From positions 16,244,001 to 16,308,000 of the forward strand of contig CM126212.1 in assembly GCA_052327205.1 (NCBI GenBank): DNA of 64,000 bases, written 5' to 3'. The translations under genes were made by a program, and so were the position numbers. The notes under the pieces were generated by a model. The model saw only the letters and a list, made by a program, of their open reading frames with translations, had not been told where the DNA came from and did not search any database. Shown here one piece after another: positions 1,495-50,576 of the stretch (the first letter of the stretch is position 1; every line of letters starts with the position of its first letter). The stretch comes from Somniosus microcephalus (lineage: Eukaryota).

Positions 1495-1751
1495 TGTTGT
1501 GTATGTAATATGTGTGCTACTTTGAACCTATGGACAGGACTGCACTACTTGTTGGGCGTAGTGATACGCAGTACCACTCCTGGCCATAGGGGTATAAATA
1601 GTACTGTGGGTACTGATCTCCCCTCAGTTCCCGCCTGTGGGCATGAAGTAAAGACCTATGTATAGTCCCTACCTCCAACCAGTAAAGACCTGTTTGAGTT
1701 ATACGTTTAAGTCTTTGTGTTAATTGTTCAATACAATACACATACTTAACA
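1495..1751 (+). promoter_or_regulatory. 5' LTR of the chimeric element
   Basis: TG...CA ends, TATAAATA near 1593, and two AGTAAAGACCT copies (polyA-signal variant) at about 1648 and 1681. Confidence 0.85.
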
Positions 1752-2305
1752 CTGGCGACGAGTCTGATTCGGACCCTGCGGCAGTCACTCCACGGCAGCT
1801 TCGTCCACAGCCAGGACGTTGCAGAGAGGTTTCCACCCTCTCCACCCCACTGGAAGACATCCTGACCTCGGAGCCTCCATCGGCGACCGTCAGCTTCTTC
1901 TCCAGCTTGGTGGTGGGTAAGCCGTTGTCTGAGCCGGGCAGCGACGCGACAGGCAGTCGACCGCGTTGGCCGCACGAACGGGGCTGGGGGAGCTGGAGGA
2001 ATAGGGCGCGAGAGCCGCTTCGAGCGGGAGGCGTTTCAACAGAGCGATCGCATCTCCTGATAAGAGCCGAGAGCCGCTTCGCGATCCAGCGATCGCATCC
2101 GCTGATAAGGGCCGCACTCGGGCGATCGCGGCGAAGATAAGGGCCGCACTCGGGGGCTGAAGGGAGACGGCGTCGGGGGACGGGTGAAGACCGCCAAGCG
2201 CGGGAAAACCGCCATTTTGTGGGCGGAGGACGACGGCAAGAGCGGGAAGCCGCCATCTTTGATAACAAGTAAAGAAAATAAAATCTGAGAAATTGCAAAT
2301 CTACA

Positions 2306-4522
2306 ATGCCTAAACACGGGAATATTAGCACCTTTGATAGTGACCTCGAAGATTGGGCCATATATGTTGAAAGAGTAAAAAATTATTGTAAGGCCAATAA
2401 AATTCGTGACCAAGATAAAGCTCTAACATTATTAAATTTAATGGGTGCGAAGACATACGGGCAATTGAAACACCTGTTATCACCAGATGAACCGGCGGAT
2501 AAGACGTTCGATGAGATTGTTACTGTCCTGAAAGATCATCTAAACCCCACGCCGCTGATGCTAGCGGAACGATTTAAATTTTACGACAGAAGGCAGCTAC
2601 AGCATGAAAGCAATGCTGATTATTTGCTGGAATTGCGTAAATTAGCGAAATATTGCCAGTTTGGAACGGGACTGACAGAGGCACTTCGAGACAAATTTGT
2701 GTGTGGTTTATTTAAACAGGATACACAAAAGCGACTGCTAGAGGAGAATGAGCTGACGCTTGAGAAGGCGGTCACTATGGCAGCAGCACACGAAGCCGCA
2801 GCGAGAGGCACGGCAGTAATGCAGCTACGGTCACCGGAGCTCAGTACACACAAATTGGGTGTGAGTTCTGGCAAATGTTATCGTTGTGGAAAGACAACGC
2901 ATGATGAGAACCAGTGTTGGTTTAAAAACCAAGAATGTAGAACTTGTGGTAGGCTTGGACATATAGCTAGAGTATGCAGGTCAGGGAAGAAGACCAGCAA
3001 CAAGAAGTCACCGCAAGGAAAATACGCAAAGGTACACAAGGTGACCGAACAGGAGTCCGATTCAGACGCTAGCAGTAATGAACTGGCTAGCTTAAGCTGT
3101 AATGAACTGGCTAGCTTAAGAGTACTCAACGCTGGTAAGGGTGCAGACCTCCAGACAATTTGGGTCACTCTTCAGATAGAAGGAGTCCAAGTAAAACTGG
3201 AATTGGACACTGGATCGGCATTGACGGTCATAAATAAGAAAGATTACGGAAAGATATTCCAACATATTCCCCTACAGGATACGGGGATTATATTGAAAAC
3301 ATACACGGGGCAAAGAGTGTACCCCATCGGGAAAATAGAGGTTGCAGTGGTCCACAAGGGCGAAGACAGTCAAATAATGGACTTATATGTGATATCTGAA
3401 GGAGGTTCTCCACTACTAGGACGGGAGTGGATTAGGAAAATGAATATGGACTGGCATTTCCTACAAAAAATAACGAGTGAGAACTCGGTGAAGATAGTCG
3501 GCCCAGACTCTGGAACGGATGATGGTAAGCCCAACTCAGGTGCAAAAGACAAAGTTTCAGCACAGAATTCCACTGAGCAACAACAACATAGTTTAACTGT
3601 GGATTCTGAGTCTGGCAAGTCTACTGATGTGCCCATTTCTGAGGGACACCGGGCTCGAACTCAACTCCATTTCAAACTACAACAGCAATTAGAACAAATG
3701 CTTCGCCGTTGTGAGCAAGAGTTGAATGCAACGAAAGAGTTCTTTGATATAGAGTTGGAGAATCTGGAAAGACAACAGAAGCAGCTGATGGAGAAAATGG
3801 AGCAGGAGCACACAAAACGTCTGATGTCAGAGGAGTTAACGGTCAGCCAACTCCTGCATATGCTGAAGGACAGGACTCTGAAATGGGAAAAACTTGAACA
3901 CGAACTTCAATATTCAAACGAAAGGGGTTCGGAGCTCTCAAAGGTTATTGGAAGAGCTGAGGTGGCAACACAGACTGAGATGACTGCAACAGAGCAGCCC
4001 TTGGATGCCAAAAGTACGCTGACTCACGTCAACGTAGAACAACAGACCGCTGAAACAGCTGCTCCGGTAGAGGGATTGAATAGTCCGATCAATCAATCTC
4101 CAAAAGAAGTTGAAGTAGTAAAATCTCAAATGAGGTCATTAGTAAACGACTTGCTGAAAGCCCAGAAAAAGCTGGATGAAGAGGTACGCATGAAGAAGTC
4201 TCTTCAGGAAAGATGTCTGGACTTGGAACAAAAGCTGGCTAACGCCCAGCTGGGTATGGAGGAAATAGAAGACCCTCTCGCTGGCCTAGATCAGGACGAC
4301 ACCGAATATTACTATGTCCTGTCCTGCCCAACTTGTAACTTCGACTCCCACCATACAGAAATCATGGAGGAGCACCGAAAGTCTACGGAACATCGGGAGA
4401 AGGTGGCTCTACTACGGAAAAAGGAGGGAGAGAAGGAGGAACTGCGCATGCAGCTGGCAGCTGACAGTGGAGCCCAGAGAGTCTCCAAGAAGCAGAAAAG
4501 GAAAAGTCGAAACAGAAGATGA
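2306..4522 (+). CDS. Gag (two CCHC knuckles) + aspartic protease fused in frame to host-derived coiled-coil and C2H2 zinc-finger segments, 738 aa
   Basis: [14 protein letters not shown] and [14 protein letters not shown] knuckles; protease LELDTGS...LLGREW. No YLDD, RNaseH or DDE motifs. Tail resembles STK10/SLK, OPTN and DNAJC21. Confidence 0.9.
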
Positions 4523-5970
4523 CCCATCTGAACCATTATTACCTCTACCAGATCACACACGTGGTCCCTCCGAACGGAGCCAATTCAGTTCGGAAGTTCA
4601 AACTGTTAAATCCATGGAAGGACTATTGAATGAGTCACTCCAGCAACGTGAACCGACTACACCACAGAGATTGAATCTGTGAACTGTTTTCCGCAGAGAC
4701 TGAATCTGTGATCTGTTTTGACATGAAGTTATCTATGTATCTATGTTATTCTGTTATGTAAACCTGAAGTTATATATGTATATATGTTATTACGTTATGT
4801 TAAATGGGGAGATGACTGTAAAGCTAGGAAGGGAGGAACGTTGTGTATGTAATATGTGTGCTACTTTGAACCTATGGACAGGACTGCACTACTTGTTGGG
4901 CGTAGTGATACGCAGTACCACTCCTGGCCATAGGGGTATAAATAGTACTGTGGGTACTGATCTCCCCTCAGTTCCCGCCTGTGGGCATGAAGTAAAGACC
5001 TACGTGTAGTCCCTACCTCCAACCAGTAAAGACCTGTTTGAGTTATACGTTTAAGTCTTTGTGTTAATTGTTCAATACAATACACATACTTAACATCCTG
5101 GCCAATATTTATCCCTCAATCAACTTAACAAAAACAGATTACCTGTATCTGGTCATTATCACATTGCTGTTTGTGGGACCTTGCTGTGCGCAAATTGGCT
5201 GCCGCGTTTCCCACTGTTTACAACAGTGACTACACTCCAAATGTACTTCATTGGCTTCATCGGTGGTCATGAAAGGCGCTAGATAAATGCAAATCTTTCG
5301 TTCTTTCAGGCAGGGGGTAAGATTGCAAAGCAGCTCCAATTGGCATTAACAGAGATCTAGAAACAGGTTGCTTGATCACCCAGAAAATAATACATGGCAC
5401 AAAGAGGGAAGAGAAAATCTCAAACGGGAGAATGAAAATGGTTCCAGCTGATAAAAACGTTGTTATTTTTGCAACCAACCTCTTGCCACAACCCCGTTTT
5501 ATGTTTAGTAGACTCTGAAAGCTCACTTCAGCATGTCTTAACAAGCAGCTCGCTTTCAAGTAGTAAGAAATCAGCTGTCAATAATTTCCTATTTTTCCTC
5601 TTTAAAGTTGATGAATGCGGATTTCACTCTTCCGATAGGTTGAGCCCAATTCACGCACCTTTTCAAAACGCTGCATCTATCTCTGTAACATTTTGACAAT
5701 GCTATATTTGGCACAGGCGCGATGGGCCGAATGGCCTCTTTCTGTGCTGTATGATTTGAAAATAAGAGAGGATGAATACACCTCAAGACACTTTGGAGGT
5801 CGTTTTTGTCTTCACCATTTGAGCGGTAAACCAGTGAGGCCGATCGATGGAAATGAAAATCGGGGGGTTTCTACAGCGGGCCGGACGGGTTCTATAACAG
5901 CCGGACAATCCACTCCGCCAGAATACTGCCTGTGCACAATGCAGACGAAAATTTAATGCACAATATTAAT

Positions 5971-14065: not shown

Positions 14066-16927
14066 TCATAATCATCATCAACTTTATTGTCATTGTTAGT
14101 GCACAAGTGCAGTACAACGAAATGTAGGCTTGCGGCTCCCGAGAGTGTACATTTAGATTAAGACATTTAACATTCAACATTCATTTGGCTTGTAATACAT
14201 AAACATAAACATAAACATAATAAAGTGCATTGGCAGATGTGCAGGCTTTAGAGTTTATTTGTAGAGTTCAGTAGGATGACAGCCCTGGGAAAGCTGTTCC
14301 TAAATCTGGTCGTTCGGGTGCGAATGCATCTGTATATGGATTGGAGGGTAGCTAACGTTACCCCACTATTCAAAAAGGGGGGTAGGGAAAAAGCAGGTAA
14401 TTACAGACCTGTAAGCCTTACATCAGTTGTGGGCAAAATGCTGGAGTCCATCATTAAGGATGAAATAGCGGAGCACTTAGCAAATGGGGACAGGATAGGA
14501 CAGAGTCAACATGGATTTACAAAGGGTAAATCGTGCTTGACTAATCTATTGGAATTTTTTGAGGGAGTAACTGGTAGAATAGATGGGGGAGAGCCAGTAG
14601 ATGTGGTGTACCTGGACTTCCAAAAGGCCTTCGATAAGGTCCCACATAAAAGATTAGCATGGAAAATTGAGGCTCATGGGATAAAGGGGAAAGTTTTGGC
14701 GTGGATAGGGAACTGGCTGTCAGATAGAAAACAGAGAGTTGGAATAAACGGCTCATTTTCTGAATGGCAGGCAGTAACAAGTGGGGTACCACAGGGATCT
14801 GTCCTGGGCCCCCAGCTGTTCACAATTTACATTAATGACCTGGATCAGGGAGTCGGATGCAGCATTTCCAAATTTGCAGACGACACTAAACTAGGAGGGG
14901 GGGTGGGCTCAGAGGAAGAGACCAGGAAGCTCCAGAGCGATTTGGACAGACTGGGCGATTGGGCGGATAAATGGCAGATGCACTATAATGTGGACAAGTG
15001 CGAAGTTATCCACCTTGGGTGCAGGAACGGGAGGGCAAATTATTATTTAAATGGCAATAGATTGGGAGAGGGGGAAGTACAGAGAGACCTGGGTGTTCTT
15101 GTACACCAGTCACTGAAGGCGAGCATGCAGGTGCAACAGGCGGTCAAGAAGGCAAACGGTATGCTGGCCTTCATAGCAAAAGGGTTAGAATACAGGAACA
15201 GGGATACCTTGCTGCAGCTGTACAGGGCACTGGTGAGACCACACCTCGAGTACTGTGTACAGTTTTGGTCGCCTCATCTGAGGAAGGATGTTCTTGCCAT
15301 GGAGGGGGTGCAGCGGCGATTCACCAGGCTGATACCAGGAATGGCGGGAATGACCTATGAGGAGAGACTATGTAGTTTAGGGATGTACACACTGGAGTTT
15401 AGAAGATTGAGAGGGGACCTCATAGAAGTGTATAAAATTCTGACAGGTCTAGACAGACTGGATGCAGAAGGAATGTTTCCCTTGGCGGGTGAGAACAGAA
15501 CTAGAGGACATAATTTAAGGATAAGGGCTAAACCATTTAGGACAGAGATGAGGGGGAATTTCTTCACTCAGAGAGTGGTGAACCTGTGGAACTCATTGCC
15601 ACAGAGGGCAGTGTACGCCAGCTCATTAAATATATTTAAGAGGGAATTAGATATATTTCTACGGGCAAAAGGGGTTAAGGGTTACGGAGAGAAGGCGGGG
15701 ACGGGATACTGAATTAAAGGATCAGCCATGATCTCATCGAATGGCGGAGCAGGCACGAAGGGCCGAATGGCCTACTCCTGCTCCTATCTTCTATGTATCT
15801 ATGTATGTATCTATGTAGCGTCTCCCAGATGGCAGGGGGGCGAACAAACTGTGGCTGGGGTGGGTAGGGTCTTTGATGATGGTCCGTGACCTCCGTAAAC
15901 AGCGTTTCTGGTAGATGTTCTCTATGGTCGGTAGCCGGGTGCCGGTAATGCGTTGGGCAGTTTTGACTACCCGCTGCAGGGCTTTCCGGTCATAGGAGCT
16001 ACAGCTGCCATACCACACTGTGATACAGTTCGTCAGGATGCTCTCTATTGTGCAGCGGTAAAAGTTAGAGAGGATCAGGGGTGACAGGTTACATCCTTTC
16101 AGCCTCCTTAGGAAATATAGGCGCTGCTGGGCCTTCTTCACCAAAGAGGAGGTATTGAGGGACCAGGAGAGGTCTTCCGTGATGTGGACTCCGAGGAACT
16201 TAAAGCTGTCCACCCTTTCCACCACAGCCCCATGGATGTGGATGGGGGTGTGACTTCCGCCTTTAGACTTCCTGAAGTCCACAATGATTTCCTTGGTTTT
16301 CTTGATGTTAAGGGCCAGGTTGTTATCGGCGCACCACTTCACGAGATGCTGGACCTCCTCCCTGTAGGCTGACTCATCGTTGTTGGTGATCTGGCCTACC
16401 ACCGTGGTATCATCCGCAAACTTGATGATGGTGTTGGAACCATGAACAGCCACACAGTCGTGGGTGAAGAGGGAGTAGAGGAGGGGGCTCAGCACACAAC
16501 CTTGTGGGGCCCCCGTGTTCAGGGTCAAGGGGGGGGGGGTGGGGGGGGGAGGTGTGGTGGGAGGTGTGGTTACCTAATTTGACAGACTGGGTCTGTTAGT
16601 TAGGAAGTCCAGGGTCCAGTTGCAAAGGGAAGTGTTCAGGCCAAGAGTGTGGAGTTTGGTGGCCAGCTTGTTGGGGACGATAGTGTTGAATGCTGAGCTG
16701 TAGTCTATGAACAGCATTCTGATGTAGGTCTCCTTACCGTCTAAGTGATTCAATGCAGAATGTAGAGCAGTTGTGATTGCATCCTCTGTTGATCTGTTTG
16801 CACGATAGGCAAACTGGTGTTGGTCAAGAGAGGCGGGAACACTGGCTTTGATGTGAGCCAGGACCAGTCTCTCGAAACACTTCATTATGATGGGCGTGAG
16901 TGCGACAGGTCGATAGTCGTTCAGACC
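14066..16927 (-). mobile_element. 5'-truncated Rex1/Babar LINE interrupted by CR1
   Basis: RT ORFs at 16574-16885 (KCFERLV...[11 protein letters not shown]) and 15791-16528 (GAPQGCVLSP...KFADDT). 3' UTR at 14066-14334. Confidence 0.92.
14337..15817 (+). mobile_element. 5'-truncated young CR1 LINE with intact RT reading frame
   Basis: DWRVANVTPLFKKG...GVPQGSVLGP...KFADDTK with no stops until 15712, then a (ctatgtat)n tail. Confidence 0.95.
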
Positions 16928-21339: not shown

Positions 21340-22238
21340 GGTACAGTAGTATAGTGATTATGTTACTGGACTAGTAATCCAGAGGCCTGGGCTAATAATC
21401 CAGAGAATGCAAGTTCAAATCCCACAATGGCAGCTTGAGAATCTCGATCAGTTTTTTTTTTAAATCTGGTAACAGAGTAAAGTGACCATGAAGGTGTTGG
21501 ATTGTCGTAAAAACCCAACTGGCTCACTAATGTCATTTAGGAAAGGAAACCTGCCATCCTTACCCGGTCTGGCCTATATGTGATTCCAGTCCCACGCCCG
21601 TTCACTGTGTTCATTAGGAAAGGAAATCTACCGTCCTGACCCGGCCTGGCCTATATGTGACTCCGGTCCCACGCCCGTTCACTGTGTTCATTAGGAAAGG
21701 AAATCTACCGTCCTTACCCGGTCTGGCCTATATGTGACTCCGGTCCCACGCCCGTTCACTGTGTTCATTAGGAAAGGAAATCTACCGTCCTTACCCGGTC
21801 TGGCCTATATGTGACTCCGGTCCCACACCCATTCACTGTGTTCATTAGGAAAGGAAATCTACCGTCCTTACCCGGTCTGGCCTATATGTGACTCTGGTCC
21901 CACGCCCGTTCACTGTGTTCATTAGGAAAGGAAGTCTACCGTCCTTACCCGGTCTGGCCTATATGTGACTCCGGTCCCACGCTGGATTCACTGTGTTCTT
22001 TAGGGAAGGAAACCTGTCGTCCTTACCCGGCCTGGCCTATATGTGACTCCAGTCCCACGCCAACGTGGTTGAATCTGAACGGCCCTCTGAAGCGGCCTAA
22101 CAAGATACTCAGTTGTATCAAAACCGCTTAGACTGCAACGATTCAAGAAGGCCCAATACCACCTTCACAGGCCAACCAGGAATGGGCAAAAAATGCCGGC
22201 CTTGCTAGCAATGCCCACACCCCGAGAATGGATAAAAA
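21340..22238 (+). mobile_element. tRNA-derived SINE with an internally amplified core
   Basis: Head ...gttactggactagtaatccagag...gttcaaatccc. Tail gggcaaaaaatgccggccttgctagcaatgcccac resembles the LINE tail at 62085-62135. Confidence 0.8.
21524..22060. repeat. 77-bp minisatellite x7
   Basis: Unit ttcactgtgttcattaggaaaggaaatctaccgtccttacccggtctggcctatatgtgactccggtcccacgcccg. Internal copies start at 21601, 21678, 21755, 21832 and 21909, with more diverged first and last units. Confidence 0.95.
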
Positions 22239-45369: not shown

Positions 45370-48300
45370 TGTAATGTATGTACCTTTAAGGGGGAGAACT
45401 ACTTTTTACAGCTCCTGTATCCTGTAGTACCGGCAGTGACCACACCTGTATATAAACCCTGAGTAGTGATCTGTACAGTCAGTTGCAGTTTGAACCCTCA
45501 TTCAGTAAACACCTGTTGATCGTTCCCTGCAGTCTTTTGTCTGATTATTGAAGGACACAACATTAAAATACCCGGATCTAACATTGGCGACGACAAAGAT
45601 TCGAACCTACCTGCAACTCTGCATCACCTCCCAGGGATTCGCTCCTGGAGAGCAGTGGAGGGAGGTCGAGTCCAGAAGCACAGGCATCGCAGGGGAGGCT
45701 GTCGAGAGCCAGGCTTGGCTTTCCAGTCACGGTGGTCCAGCGAAACGGGCTGGCAACAGGTACTGCGCAGACCCTTCCCGGACAGCGGCGGCTAGAGCCA
45801 ACCGAGCGGCACAGAAAAAGGCCGAGCAGCGTCGACGGGGGAGAGAGGGCAGAGCGCACAGGGCGCAGCTGGTGTTCAAGGGCTGAGCAGCGTTAACGGG
45901 GGAGAGAGGCGAGAGAGAGCAGAGCGCAGCCGGTGTTCAGGACCGAGCGGCGTCAACGGAGGAGAGAGGCGAGAGAGAGCAGAGCGCAGCCGGTGTTCAA
46001 GGGCCGAGCAGCATCAACAGGGGAGAGAGGCGCGCAGGAAAACGCGAGGCGCTGCCACTGCCACGAGGACTGCAGAGAGCGGCATTGGCAGCAGCGCAGG
46101 AGCAGCGCACGAAACCCACAGAGCGTCGCCATTTGCCACGAGGACCGCCGAGAGCGGCGTTGGCAGCAGCGCGGGAGACGCCATTTTAAGCCGCAGCGGG
46201 GAAGAAAGGAAAGCGCGGGAGACGCCATTTTAAGCTGCAGCGGGGAAGAAAGGAAAGCACGGGAGACGCCATTTTAAGCCAGTCTAACCACACCCAAAAA
46301 TGCCGAAGAGTGGCAGTATCACAGCGTTCGACAATGAAGTCGAAGATTGGACGACATATGTCGAACGCATAGAAGTACACTGCAAGGCGAATGAAGTGCC
46401 AGATGACAAGAAAGCGCTGGTATTGTTGAATTCAATGGGTGCAAAAACGTTTGGCTTACTACGAAACCTAGTAACCCCAGAGAAGCCAGTAGAAAAGGAT
46501 TTTGAAAACATAGTGTCAATCCTACAGGACCACTTAAACCCCACACCGCTGCTGATAGCAGAAAGATTTAAGTTTCACAAAAGGAACCAGCATAAAGAGG
46601 AAAGTAATGCTGAGTATTTAACGGAACTGCGCAAGCTATCGAAACACTGCCAGTTTGGAACGGGACTAGCAGATACTTTAAGGGACAAGTTTATGTGTGG
46701 GCTTCAAAGTGAAGGAACCCAGAAACGGCTTCTATCAGAAAAGGATCTTACGCTGGACAAGGCTTTCAGCATTGCAGTATCACACGAAGCAGCTGCACGG
46801 GGCGCTGCAGAGATACAACGGAGACCGCAAGAATATGGCACAAATGAAATGTTATACGGAACAGTGAAGTGCTATCGCTGCGACAGAACAACACACGACC
46901 ATAATGATTGCTGGTTCAAGGACAAAGTGTGCAGACAGTGTGGAAAAGTAGGACACATAGCAAGAGTCTGCAGGTCGGGAAAGAAAACCAGCAGCAAGAA
47001 ATCTCCACAGGAGAAGTACAAGAAGGTACATAAGGTGACGGAGAGTAGTTCAGACGAACAGAAGAGTGATACAGACTCCGGAAGCAAGGAGCTGGGTTGT
47101 CTGAAACTACATAATGTGATCAAAACGGAGGATCACCAAACTATCTGGGTCACGCTCAAGATAGCAGGAGTCCAAGTGAAAATGGAATTGGACACAGGAT
47201 CAGCCCTAACAGTCATAAACCGAAGGGACTACAAGCAACTATTCTCACATATACCCTTGAGAGATACAAAGATTGTCTTGAAGACGTACACGGGGCAAAA
47301 AGTCTACCCCAAAGGAAAAATAAGGGTGAACGTTATATATAATGGCAAGGAAACACCAAAAATGGACCTATATGTATTGCCAGATGGAGGACCACCACTA
47401 CTAGGACGTGAATGGATCCGGAAGATACAGCTAGATTGGCATTCCATACAAGCACTGACTGTAGATGCCAAAAAGGATGACGACGTCACACCTGGACGAC
47501 TGTCAAAAATGCTAACTGACGCACAAGAAGTGTTCCAGCAGGGACTCGGAACACTAAAAGGCATAACAGCGATGATCAAAATAGAGGAAAATGCAAGCCC
47601 AAAGTTTTTTAAGGCCAGACCGGTACCTTATGCGATCCGCCCAGCCGTCGAAGCAGAGCTGGAAGGTTTGGAACGTTCAGGAGTACTGTCCAAAGTGGAC
47701 TGGAGTGAGTGGGCTACACCCATCGTTCCTGTAATGAAGAGGTCGTTGAGTAATACGCCTGGGGAACCAAAGAAGGTTCGCATCCGTGGGGACTTTAAGG
47801 TGACAGTGAACCCAGTCCTTCACACTGTACAATATCCGCTTCCGCGGATTGAAGATATTTTCGCCTTGCTATCTGGAGGGAAACGCTTCACTAAGATTGA
47901 TCTGGCCCAGGCGTACCTGTAAATGGAGGTAGAAGAAGCCTCGAAACAGTACCTCACGATCAACACTCATAAAGGTCTCTACCAATACAACCGGCTGGTG
48001 TTCGGGGTAGCATCAGCTCCAGCTATTTGGCAAAGGGCAATGGAACAAGTCCTGCAAGGGATTCCAGGGACCCAGTGTTATTTGGACGACATCCTGGTCA
48101 CGGGTGAAAATGACAGTGATCACCTCGCCAACCTGGAGCAGGTGCTCACTAGATTGAAGGAATATGGGCTTCGAGCTAATCACCACAAATGCGAGTTTTT
48201 CCAGACGCAGATCTCGTATTGTGGCCACGTTATTGATAAAGAGGGGTTACATAAGTCCCCTGAAAAGATTGAGGCAGTAGTCAAGGCTCCAGCACCGGAA

Positions 48301-50576
48301 AATGTGTCACAACTGAGGTCGTTCCTCGGGCTGGTGAACTACTACCATAAGTTCTTGCCGAATTTGTCTACCGTACTACACCCACTGAACACCCTACTGC
48401 AAACGGGGGTACCATGGAAGTGGAGTGACAAATGTAAACGAGCTTTCCAGAACAGCAAAGCGTTGATCACATCAAAAGAGGTGTTGGCTCATTTCAACCC
48501 AGCACTACCAATTCGGTTGGCGTGTGATGCATCACCCTATGGCATTGGAGCGGTGCTGTCGCACAAATTCCCGGACGGCTCGGAGAGGCCAGTAGCCTTT
48601 GCGTCTTGGTCACTAACCTCAGCCGAACGAAACTACGCCCAGATTGACAGGGAGGCCCTCAGCCTAGTGTGGGGAGTGAAAAAGTTCAATCACTATCTGC
48701 ACGGGCAGAAGTTCACCTTGCTGACTGACCACCAACCACTTGTCTCCATCTTTAATCCAAAGAAGGGCGTTCCGGTGATGACTGCGCAACGGCTACAAAG
48801 ATGGTCCCTTTTTCTAGGGGCGCACCAATATGATATCGAGTATAAGGGCACGAAACAGCATGGAAACGCTGATGGGCTATCACGCCTGCCACTGCCTACT
48901 GTGGAGGAAGCACCAGCAGCGGATCCTGTCGAAATATTTCATTCGACTATAATTGAATGCTTGCCAGTAACTAACGCTGGTATAGAGAAGGAGACCCGAA
49001 ATGACCCGACACTGTCTCGGGTATATGATTTGACGGTGAAGGGATGGCCAGCACATGGCGACTCACTGTTGCCAGCATTCTCATCCAGAAGAGAACAGCT
49101 GTCAGTATGCCAGGGGATCTTGATGTGTGGATCCCGAGTGGTAATTCCACCCAAGTTAAGGGAGAGAGTGCTCAATGAGCTTCACGAAGGTCATCTGGGA
49201 GGGGTGAAAATGAAAAGCCTTGCTAGGGCTTATGTGTGGTGGCCGGGGATCGATCAGCAAATCGAGGACCTGACAAAGAGCTGCTCAGGATGCCAGAAGG
49301 TCCAAAATGCACCACCACATGCCCCTCTACACCCATGGGAGTGGCCCTCATCTCCATGGCAACAGGTGCATATTGATTTTGCTGGTCCATTCATGGACTC
49401 AATGTTTTTAATAGCCGTGGATGCGCACTCGAAATGGCCTGAGGTGATCAAAATGTCCTCCACCACCACAGAGAAAACTATTGCAGTCCTACGGACCATT
49501 TTTGCCAGGAACGGCTTGCCAGAGCAGATTTGCTCTGATAACGGACCACAGTTTGTGTCCGAAGAGTTTCGAAGATTTATGAAAAGGAATGGGGTAAGGC
49601 ATTACACATCCGCCCCGTATCATCCAGCCACAAATGGATTGGCTGAGAGGTTCGTACAAACCTTTAAAAAAGCAGTAAAGGCCATGTGCGATGATGACAT
49701 TCCACTGCAGCATAAGGTGGATAATTTCCTGTTAGCCTTCAGAAATGCGACACATGCAGTCACCAACCAGGCCCCGGCCATGATGTTCTTTAACCGAAGG
49801 TTGAGATCTCGTCTGGATTTGCTCAGACCAAATGTACGAAGAGATGTTGAGAATAAGCAATTCCAGCACATCAATGAGAAGCCGACAAGGAGCTTCAATG
49901 TAGGGCAACCAGTCTTGGCCCGCGACTGCCTAACAGAGAAATGGCAACCAGGAACGATATGCACAAGGCAGGGGCCACTAATGTACACAGTGGATGTTGG
50001 GGAGAACATTGTGAGACGCCATGCTGACCAGATCCTAGAGTCACAGGAACGAGTCAACCCCATGTCTCGGCCATACGTACCTGGTGAGGAACCCGATGTA
50101 CAGGTCGCATCTACCTCAGAAACAATAGCATTGGAAGCTGATGAATCAACTGACGACAGGGTGTTAGAATCGCCTCCGCACCAAGAGCGAGACACTCGGG
50201 AAAGGCGTTATCCAGAAAGAATCAGGAATCCGCCCCAAAGACTGAATTTATAAATAGACTATTTTCAGTTAATGTTGCATGTTAAAAGTGTTAATTGTAA
50301 TTAGTTTGATATTTAATTGTTAAATGAGTGTTATGGTACTGTTAATCTAAAAGGGGAGGAATTGTAATGTATGTACCTTTAAGGGGGAGAACTACTTTTT
50401 ACAGCTCCTGTATCCTGTCGTACCGGCAGTGACCACACCTGTATATAAACCCTGAGTAGTGATCTGTACAGTCAGTTGCAGTTTGAACCCTCATTCAGTA
50501 AACACCTGTTGATCGTTCCCTGCAGTCTTTTGTCTGATTATTGAAGGACACAACATTAAGATACTCGGATCTAACA
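45370..50576 (+). mobile_element. Full-length Ty3/Gypsy (Mag-type) LTR retrotransposon
   Basis: 214-bp LTRs at 45370-45583 and 50363-50576 with 3 differences counted by eye. TSD TGCCA (45365-45369, 50577-50581). PBS TGGCGACGA at 45585 and PPT aaaaggggaggaa. Confidence 0.97.
46300..50253 (+). pseudogene. gag-pol polyprotein (Gag, PR, RT, RNaseH, IN) with one in-frame premature TAA at 47920-47922
   Basis: ORFs 46300-47922 and 47923-50253 are in the same frame. Motifs: DTGS protease, YLDD RT, DAS RNaseH, HHCC and D..D..E integrase, C-terminus PPQRLNL. The stop replaces the conserved Q of AYLQ (CAA>TAA). Confidence 0.95.

Follow-up and report, generated by a model that had tools for sequence, protein, structure and literature searches.

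Host-gene cargo in a mass-amplified retrotransposon family of Somniosus microcephalus, probably founded on one full turn of a circular STK10 RNA

Introduction

Transducing retroviruses carry gag-onc fusions, in which host cDNA stands in frame with gag at the cost of pol, and depend on a helper. The TR-GAG elements of plants are non-autonomous long terminal repeat (LTR) elements that keep LTRs, primer-binding site (PBS), polypurine tract (PPT) and Gag and are missing reverse transcriptase (RT) and integrase. The present analysis concerns an LTR retrotransposon at positions 1495-5095 of a stretch of 64,000 nucleotides (nt) of the Somniosus microcephalus genome (assembly GCA_052327205.1, contig CM126212.1, positions 16,244,001 to 16,308,000, forward strand), referred to as the window. 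In this shark family the slot of RT and integrase is filled with host cargo within the open reading frame (ORF), not simply deleted as in TR-GAG-type elements, and the family differs from the gag-onc viruses in having no env, in its germline amplification and in showing no sign that host protein activity was kept.

As far as the sections cited here describe it, maize Bs1 is an LTR element with an interior put together from parts of three host genes and with switch points common across copies, as in the shark family (PMC5131818, PMC7264820); it exists in 1-5 copies, with one piece out of frame with its parent (PMC5131818). The shark family differs in residing in a vertebrate, in having all of its pieces in the parent frame, in drawing on at least four cargo genes, in having living intermediates and in numbering thousands of copies; the low, stable copy number of a Bs1-type domesticated chimeric gene is not what is found here (at least 3,903 copies). 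The portions of Tan et al. (2016) used here report intronless sense-strand host pieces within LTR elements, short shared switch sequences and multi-gene chimeras, including a mouse chimera of four genes and an Alu (PMC5131818). Intronless sense-strand host sequence is likewise found inside the shark element, for STK10 and OPTN by comparison with host exons and for a fourth cargo gene by comparison with split host matches (C27). Those retrocopies are few-copy, whereas the shark cargo replaces RT to integrase in frame behind a selected Gag-protease and defines mass-amplifying families.

The cited part of Dong et al. (2016) describes mouse circRFWD2 pseudogenes, in which a non-colinear back-splice joint is found in DNA together with circle exons only, no poly(A) and LTR sequence alongside; 33 high-confidence LTR-associated mouse copies were reported and their mechanism was left mysterious (PMC4897178). 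The shark cargo shares the exact non-colinear splice-site junction and the confinement to the exons of a circle, and differs from the mouse pseudogenes in its open frame and in its two intact junctions with the element, between which lies a full turn plus 11 nt. The main text of PMC5131818 nowhere uses the word 'circular', and a search of the open-access literature, supplements excluded, returned no description of the shark family or of full-turn circle capture and no paper on circSTK10. The family is a case of LTR-mediated gene capture, set apart by the probable full-turn circle and by frame-kept cargo at mass scale.

Results and discussion

The founding cargo

The element was followed through the genome of the same species (6.45 Gb, 2,112 contigs), from which the host STK10 and OPTN exons were also taken; family letters A to F and STK10 exon letters a to e are labels of this analysis, and the window copy belongs to family A. 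In family C the cargo lies entirely within STK10 exons a to e, arranged as b (3' part)-c-d-e-a-b (5' part), and matches the host exons at 97.5-100% identity. The e-to-a joint connects the exon e donor (GAG/gt) to the exon a acceptor (ag/CAC) as an exact back-splice. The five exons (135+675+131+124+180 = 1,245 nt) form 415 codons without a stop, and four of the five family C copies have a capture of 1,256 nt (the fifth was not measurable), which corresponds to one turn plus 11 nt doubled at the ends. This cargo continues the frame of a short RT stub on one side and that of an integrase tip on the other. A single STK10 site, similar to both the RT start and the integrase tail, serves for the two outer junctions.

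The back-splice junction has 829 exact matches in the genome (control 0), and 75 of the 100 matches listed in a genome search cover the intron-split STK10 stretch uninterrupted. The junction is also present at loci L167, L178 and L179; in the window copy it has been overwritten, leaving the permuted order b-d-e…a-b. Queries from beyond exons a to e recovered the host gene and one separate retrocopy, and none of the families. Since the e-to-a joint falls exactly on splice sites, the captured unit is one turn plus 11 nt and nothing derives from beyond exons a to e, the founding STK10 cargo was very probably derived from a back-spliced circular RNA (circRNA). The separate retrocopy (L080, C3:354.66 Mb) is an intronless STK10 3' coding end that is 94% identical to a shark protein and adjoins a long interspersed nuclear element (LINE).

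The mechanism proposed starts from a non-autonomous Ty3/Gypsy-type clade that would encode its own Gag and protease and borrow RT and integrase in trans. From the observed junctions we infer that RT left the integrase tip and landed on a co-packaged circular STK10 RNA. It would then have copied the circle once, until the template ended 11 nt past the landing point, as expected if RNase H had cut the RNA behind it, before jumping to the RT start. The outcome would be the arrangement of family C, in which RT, RNase H and integrase are replaced by a stop-free circle of 415 codons in frame at both ends. If this is correct, circular RNA can serve as a template that an LTR reverse transcriptase enters, copies for one turn and quits, which would provide sequence-level evidence on the open mechanism of circRNA pseudogenes, and the 11-nt overlap would be a measurable footprint to search for in other genomes.

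Sources and assembly of the cargo

In the window copy the ORF leaves its Gag-protease for two pieces of the large STK10 exon b (3475-3645, 86-88% to the host exon), followed by spliced exons d and e, which include the start of the PKK coiled coil (3641-3822, 91-93%), and by four spliced OPTN exons of the coiled-coil region (3815-4266, 81-92%). A DNAJC21 piece comprising an acidic stretch, a C2H2 finger and a basic tail (about 4271-4517) completes the ORF; it contains a C-x2-C-x12-H-x5-H finger at 4325-4393, in which residues have changed rapidly and the ligands are retained. Beyond the stop lie the end of STK10 exon a and the start of exon b (4514-4634, matching the host exons), which represent the far side of the circle, and the C-terminal tip of integrase (…PQRLNL stop, 4635-4682), all on the forward strand. 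The reading first made from the letters alone (the sequence-only reading) took this tip to be the sole remnant of what had been lost; the tip is present, and the STK10 sequence preceding it, which is still open and in the same frame, had been missed.

The same reading had named STK10, OPTN and DNAJC21 as sources of the tail, and Pfam, protein and profile searches all bear this out. Pfam recovered PKK at residues 458-508 of the window ORF (E 1e-7). A protein search with residues 392-738 gave 46 matches, in which the best named relatives are shark proteins, including OPTN (72%, E 1e-50) and STK10 (E down to 1.5e-17, at 75-80% identity across the PKK piece). A profile of three tail sequences gave 48 matches, all DnaJ-type by annotation or name and all DNAJC21 where the name is informative (best E 5e-7). 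A single-sequence search for the DNAJC21 piece found it in none of 43 candidates, a search of representative proteins with the tail gave 15 matches with no name apart from OPTN, and a PDB sequence search gave no match for the window tail and three weak, uninformative ones for the family B tail. A PF21884 lead pointed to a gene that we take to be DNAJC2, and was dropped. A normal Gypsy domain was rejected as an identity for the cargo. The kinase, J-domain and ubiquitin-binding parts of the host proteins are absent from it.

The host genes are located on C8 (STK10), C17 (OPTN) and C1 (DNAJC21). The cargo runs unbroken across the introns of STK10 and OPTN, so that the claim of an intron-less cargo holds for these two genes. 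For DNAJC21, host exons 1-4 lie at C1:2.65-2.675 Mb, and the finger exon was not found in the 30 kb beyond them, in further searches, which were swamped by element copies, or in the 160-kb neighbourhood of RAD1, where no DNAJC21 was found. In the host STK10 gene the c-d intron is of the GC-AG type, and the intron upstream of exon a contains an insertion related to the element at window position 46300 described below. One host OPTN exon (L063:9780-9793) has one A more than three element copies, which shifts the frame and may be an assembly error or a frameshift allele.

In family D, a GAGG overlap marks the loss of about 137 codons of STK10, and six spliced OPTN exons have been gained in frame; these are 96-99% identical to the host, apart from one at 86% through a 21-nt deletion. 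The captured OPTN stretch (host L063:4049 to L064:5333) starts 8 nt into one exon and ends within about 13 nt of the end of the sixth. It may represent almost one turn of a second circle. Family F shares the STK10 deletion of D and keeps the back-splice junction, with a myosin-tail gene inserted in exon e and DNAJC21 inside exon a, all in frame. This fourth cargo matches the Pfam myosin tail (E 9e-16) and is presumably CGNL1; among the 24 matches of its genome search, 14 are unbroken copies and four are host exons on C27. Family E, whose finger has 471 matches at two or fewer mismatches, unites the OPTN form and the DNAJC21 form at a common ATGGAGGAAAT. In this family a 13-nt deletion offsets a +1 slip at the end of the DNAJC21 piece, so that the frame is open again.

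Families A and B stem from an E-like cassette. Between A and C, D or E the synonymous divergence (dS) is 0.55-0.66 in Gag-protease and 0.11-0.16 in the cargo, which indicates that the cassette of A was transferred to another Gag-protease and LTR chassis. In family B, 40 of 40 scored copies are identical over 291 bp. Families C, D/E and A/B end in Arg/Lys-rich tails that are reached through different frames, and in A and B the stop is shifted about 160 nt upstream. The OPTN motif SFVEI, which we take to be the LC3-binding LIR motif, is retained in B, D and E (L012, L068, L164) and was lost from A, the most numerous family, by a 318-nt deletion at window position 3815. Family A has also lost the RT N-terminal stub with the natural junction region, which bears on the possible release of the cargo by the protease that the sequence-only reading suggested. 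Cargo elements at L011, L075 and L076 lie within or beside other, pol-bearing LTR elements, and nested insertion seems common.

In the second step of the mechanism, which the families show directly, parts of STK10 were lost and spliced pieces of OPTN, DNAJC21 and the myosin-tail gene were gained through further switches at short shared sequences, such as the overlaps of GAGG, AAAGCTGA and TGGCAGAGG found at cargo switch points; co-packaged elements recombined modules, and the family A cassette was moved to its new chassis. The sequence-only reading proposed serial mRNA capture by template switching with every junction in frame. Spliced host RNA and short shared sequences at the junctions agree with template switching, and STK10 would have come from a circle, not from a linear mRNA. 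The serial order does not stand as proposed, as it was in a sister lineage that DNAJC21 was inserted into STK10 exon a, and recombination between elements then brought it together with OPTN. The final 3' junction of DNAJC21 is out of frame, so that the ORF ends there.

Copy number, age and expression

The STK10/OPTN junction of family A has 3,903 exact matches in the genome (control 0), which is a lower bound on the number of family A copies. In 14 further whole copies of this family, 13 LTR pairs are 98.4-100% identical and 11 copies have clean, different 5-bp target-site duplications (TSDs), with mis-called ends in the other three. LTR pairs of families B, C, D and E/F are 98-100% identical wherever they were correctly paired. 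All 115 scored matches to the tail protein are stop-free and 101 lie in frames of at least 727 residues, these being top scorers and biased to intact copies. In six public sequencing runs, which come from two studies, 74-83% of the sampled element words are present; these runs and the junction count reject an assembly chimera. The window element family is, as judged from its LTRs, junctions and missing domains, young and non-autonomous, with many insertions despite having no RT or integrase. Head-to-tail arrays of family A elements that share LTRs occur with a period of about 3.37 kb at L139 (C3:263.21-263.22 Mb) and also at C12:192.88 Mb.

The run index lists no RNA run as containing the sequence. 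Two RNA runs (X7 and X8, of which 24% and 31% were read), which have a species label in common with a run that contains the sequence and may come from another individual, were compared with the host STK10 exons. Bin depth reaches about 100-560 on the STK10 pieces kept in the deleted families and is at most 2 on exon c, the family A joint at a 69-nt deletion occurs in 127 and 30 reads, and X7 is about 20:1 sense at exons d and e. The earlier suggestion of a still-mobile element accords with this transcription, with the thousands of copies and with the different TSDs of the 11 cleanly delimited ones. Element reads exceed host reads on STK10 exons about a hundredfold, and together with hundreds of genomic back-splice junctions would mislead calls of circRNA and of expression in this species.

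Selection on Gag-protease and cargo

Gag-protease is under purifying selection: the ratio of nonsynonymous to synonymous divergence (dN/dS) is 0.25-0.32 at kappa 3 in six of seven family pairs (p <=1e-7 for those six) and 0.50 in the closest pair. For the cargo, dN/dS between families is 0.62-0.89 at kappa 3 and 0.45-0.64 at kappa 1. As a neutral control we used the private mutations of families B (20 copies) and C (12 copies), namely 25 silent, 67 replacement and 6 stop changes; the A cargo was left out because its copies had been picked by protein identity. Gag-protease differs clearly from this control (p 0.0005 and 0.002), and the cargo has the same proportion of silent (S) to replacement (N) changes (A vs E 31S:73N, Fisher p 0.75; B vs E 56:101, p 0.21). 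Selection on the residues of the fusion protein, as first suggested, is thus not supported, and selection on its open frame is. Fixed stops number 0 of 104 and 0 of 157 lineage changes, whereas 6 of 98 private mutations are stops (p 0.012 and 0.003). Within STK10 and OPTN the net changes in ORF length are all multiples of three, and the cargo differs by 10-16% from host or sister family without a fixed stop. The open frame of the cargo is selected and most of its residues are not, because no stop has been fixed and the roughly 13 in-frame junctions and deletions (chance about 4e-4 at a bias of 0.55) are too many for the frame bias of short shared sequences.

In the third step of the mechanism, the cargo would act as translatable filler, from which stops and frameshifts are purged while its residues drift, a pattern that is observed directly. 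As the cause we infer that ribosomes running to near the 3' LTR would let the RNA escape premature-stop decay and be packaged. In the section of the source cited here, Rous sarcoma virus RNAs with premature stops are decayed and packaged less (PMC5035971). On balance, the cargo would more likely than not be frame-keeping filler in a clade that borrows RT and integrase in trans.

Several observations weigh against this. The copies behind the lineage counts were chosen for open frames, and frame-keeping is partly mechanical, as 43-64% of chance matches between genes share frame by short sequence alone. Between B and E the cargo shows slight constraint, with dN/dS of 0.62 at kappa 3 (p 0.011) and 0.45 at kappa 1, and A and B have amplified most even though their stop moved upstream. 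The DNAJC21 finger shows 22N:2S vs E with its four ligands retained, one of them through a silent change.

The cargo might instead be a working accessory module, in a slot behind the protease that would act as an evolvable gene, with coiled coils that dimerise the polyprotein or bind host partners, an explanation that is less likely and still substantial. It would agree with three of the four cargos being coiled-coil proteins and with the retention of SFVEI in three families beside its deletion in the most numerous one, although the bulk of the cargo has neutral proportions of change, its domains are freely cut through and deleted, and coiled-coil coding sequences share short purine-rich words that favour capture without function. 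With equal reserve, the finger could be under positive selection, as a counter-defence surface or to shed harmful host RNA-binding activity. It has 21.9 amino-acid-changing differences, against an expectation of 4.0 at the rate of the remaining cargo (Poisson p 3e-10), and 6N:0S between two close A sublineages (0.5 expected). Inspection by eye of the E copies and of the first 100 among 5,383 matches gave seven stepwise variants, and the four ligands are unchanged. The loss of the core Phe and several Lys also fits decay of the finger, however, clustered multi-base events could inflate N, and one other 23-codon stretch reaches 11-17.5 N where alignments are poor. Similarly tentative is a role of the basic C-terminus as a nuclear localisation signal or RNA binder, for which the independent framing of the Arg/Lys-rich tails in C, D/E and A/B would speak.

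More speculative still is a standing accessory-gene slot behind the protease, seeded by the circle turn and restocked from host circles and mRNAs, with the finger adapting in conflict with host or helper. If true, a vertebrate retrotransposon would be evolving a new counter-defence protein from host parts. The dated series C, D, F, E and A/B, with LTR pairs at 98-100%, makes exon shuffling, frame selection and possible adaptation readable branch by branch.

Alternatives to the circle and to frame selection

As to the founding event, the non-colinear STK10 joint could have arisen from a linear repeated-exon RNA (trans-splicing), from tandem duplication in the host or from two mRNA switches at a shared AG, which is improbable. 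The donor and acceptor do share AG, and the single STK10 site behind both outer junctions fits switching of this kind. Two null results also count against the circle: the RNA joints listed include no back-splice, at a depth of at most 2 for host exon c and with 1,236 joints outside the listing, so that this blank is weak, and there is no inverted repeat between the introns flanking the circle exons. The e-to-a joint is shown only in contig run X3, and X7 and X8 cover the host exons at very low depth. A tandem duplication within the host STK10 locus was rejected, as each exon is present once in the 38 kb examined, and the flanking introns are long (15.5 and 8.0 kb). A linear template would leave unexplained both the limit at exons a to e and the proximity, within 11 nt of a 1,245-nt unit, of start and end, for which a circular RNA would account.

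That no selection acts on the cargo, its frames being open through same-frame junction homology and young copies, would suit the mechanical frame bias, the near-identical LTR pairs and the reading that the cited part of Tan et al. gives of in-frame young retrocopies (PMC5131818), but is very unlikely, as the lineages, at 10-16% divergence with no fixed stop, are not young in substitutions, the in-frame events are too many and the slip of family E is paired with the deletion that reopens its frame.

Architecture of the window element

The cis signals of the element had all been reported as intact, and each was located. The 5' LTR (1495-1751, 257 bp, TG...CA) and the 3' LTR (4839-5095, 257 bp, starting with CG in the window copy) differ at three positions (1495/4839, 1659/5003 and 1662/5006) and are flanked by the 5-bp TSD TCCTG (1490-1494 and 5096-5100). 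The PPT is at 4826-4838, and the sequence has no A-tail. The PBS (1753-1762) is complementary over 10 nt to a tRNA-like 3' end; the match itself stands, and the primer is presumably tRNA-Ser, an identity given in the earlier reading, as ARAGORN and Rfam gave no name to the tRNA-like sequence. Related LTR elements (L169-L174) carry a primer-site copy of about 25 nt of the tRNA-like 3' end, a motif with 548 matches.

The single ORF (2306-4522, 738 residues), which joins Gag-protease to host-derived cargo in frame, is open throughout as claimed, and the remaining five frames of its tail have 9-26 stops each. Its first part (2306-3469) encodes a Gag with two CCHC knuckles and an aspartic protease (DTG, residues 301-303). 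As had been noted, it tracks the Gag-protease of the relative at 46300 and then leaves it, with 237 of 392 residues (60%) identical and the match ending at residue 392. Pfam matches to Gag and protease are below cut-off in the window ORF, and the protease is above cut-off in this relative. The relative is a full-length Gypsy-type element (45370-50576) with 214-bp LTRs at three differences, the TSD TGCCA and protease, RT, RNase H and integrase in Gypsy order; its gag-pol frame is interrupted by an in-frame stop (47920-47922). The window element shares its integrase tip and is without RT, RNase H and integrase domains. Judged by LTRs with TSD, by PBS and PPT and by Gag-protease, the window element is of the Ty3/Gypsy type. 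The relative was rejected as direct parent or helper, given 60% protein identity and unrelated LTRs. A search for an autonomous partner with one narrow pattern gave two matches, neither of which runs on into RT.

Apart from these elements, the genome contains a separate amplified gene fragment, the 5' part of RAD1 (PF02144 positions 3-51; host gene on C40). More than 100 copies of it are scattered through the genome, and a long low-complexity tract rich in purines adjoins each one (for example L156-L159). The window also contains a LINE-type RT ORF of 478 residues (14276-15712), which we take to be CR1-like, and a 77-bp tandem array (21460-22059).

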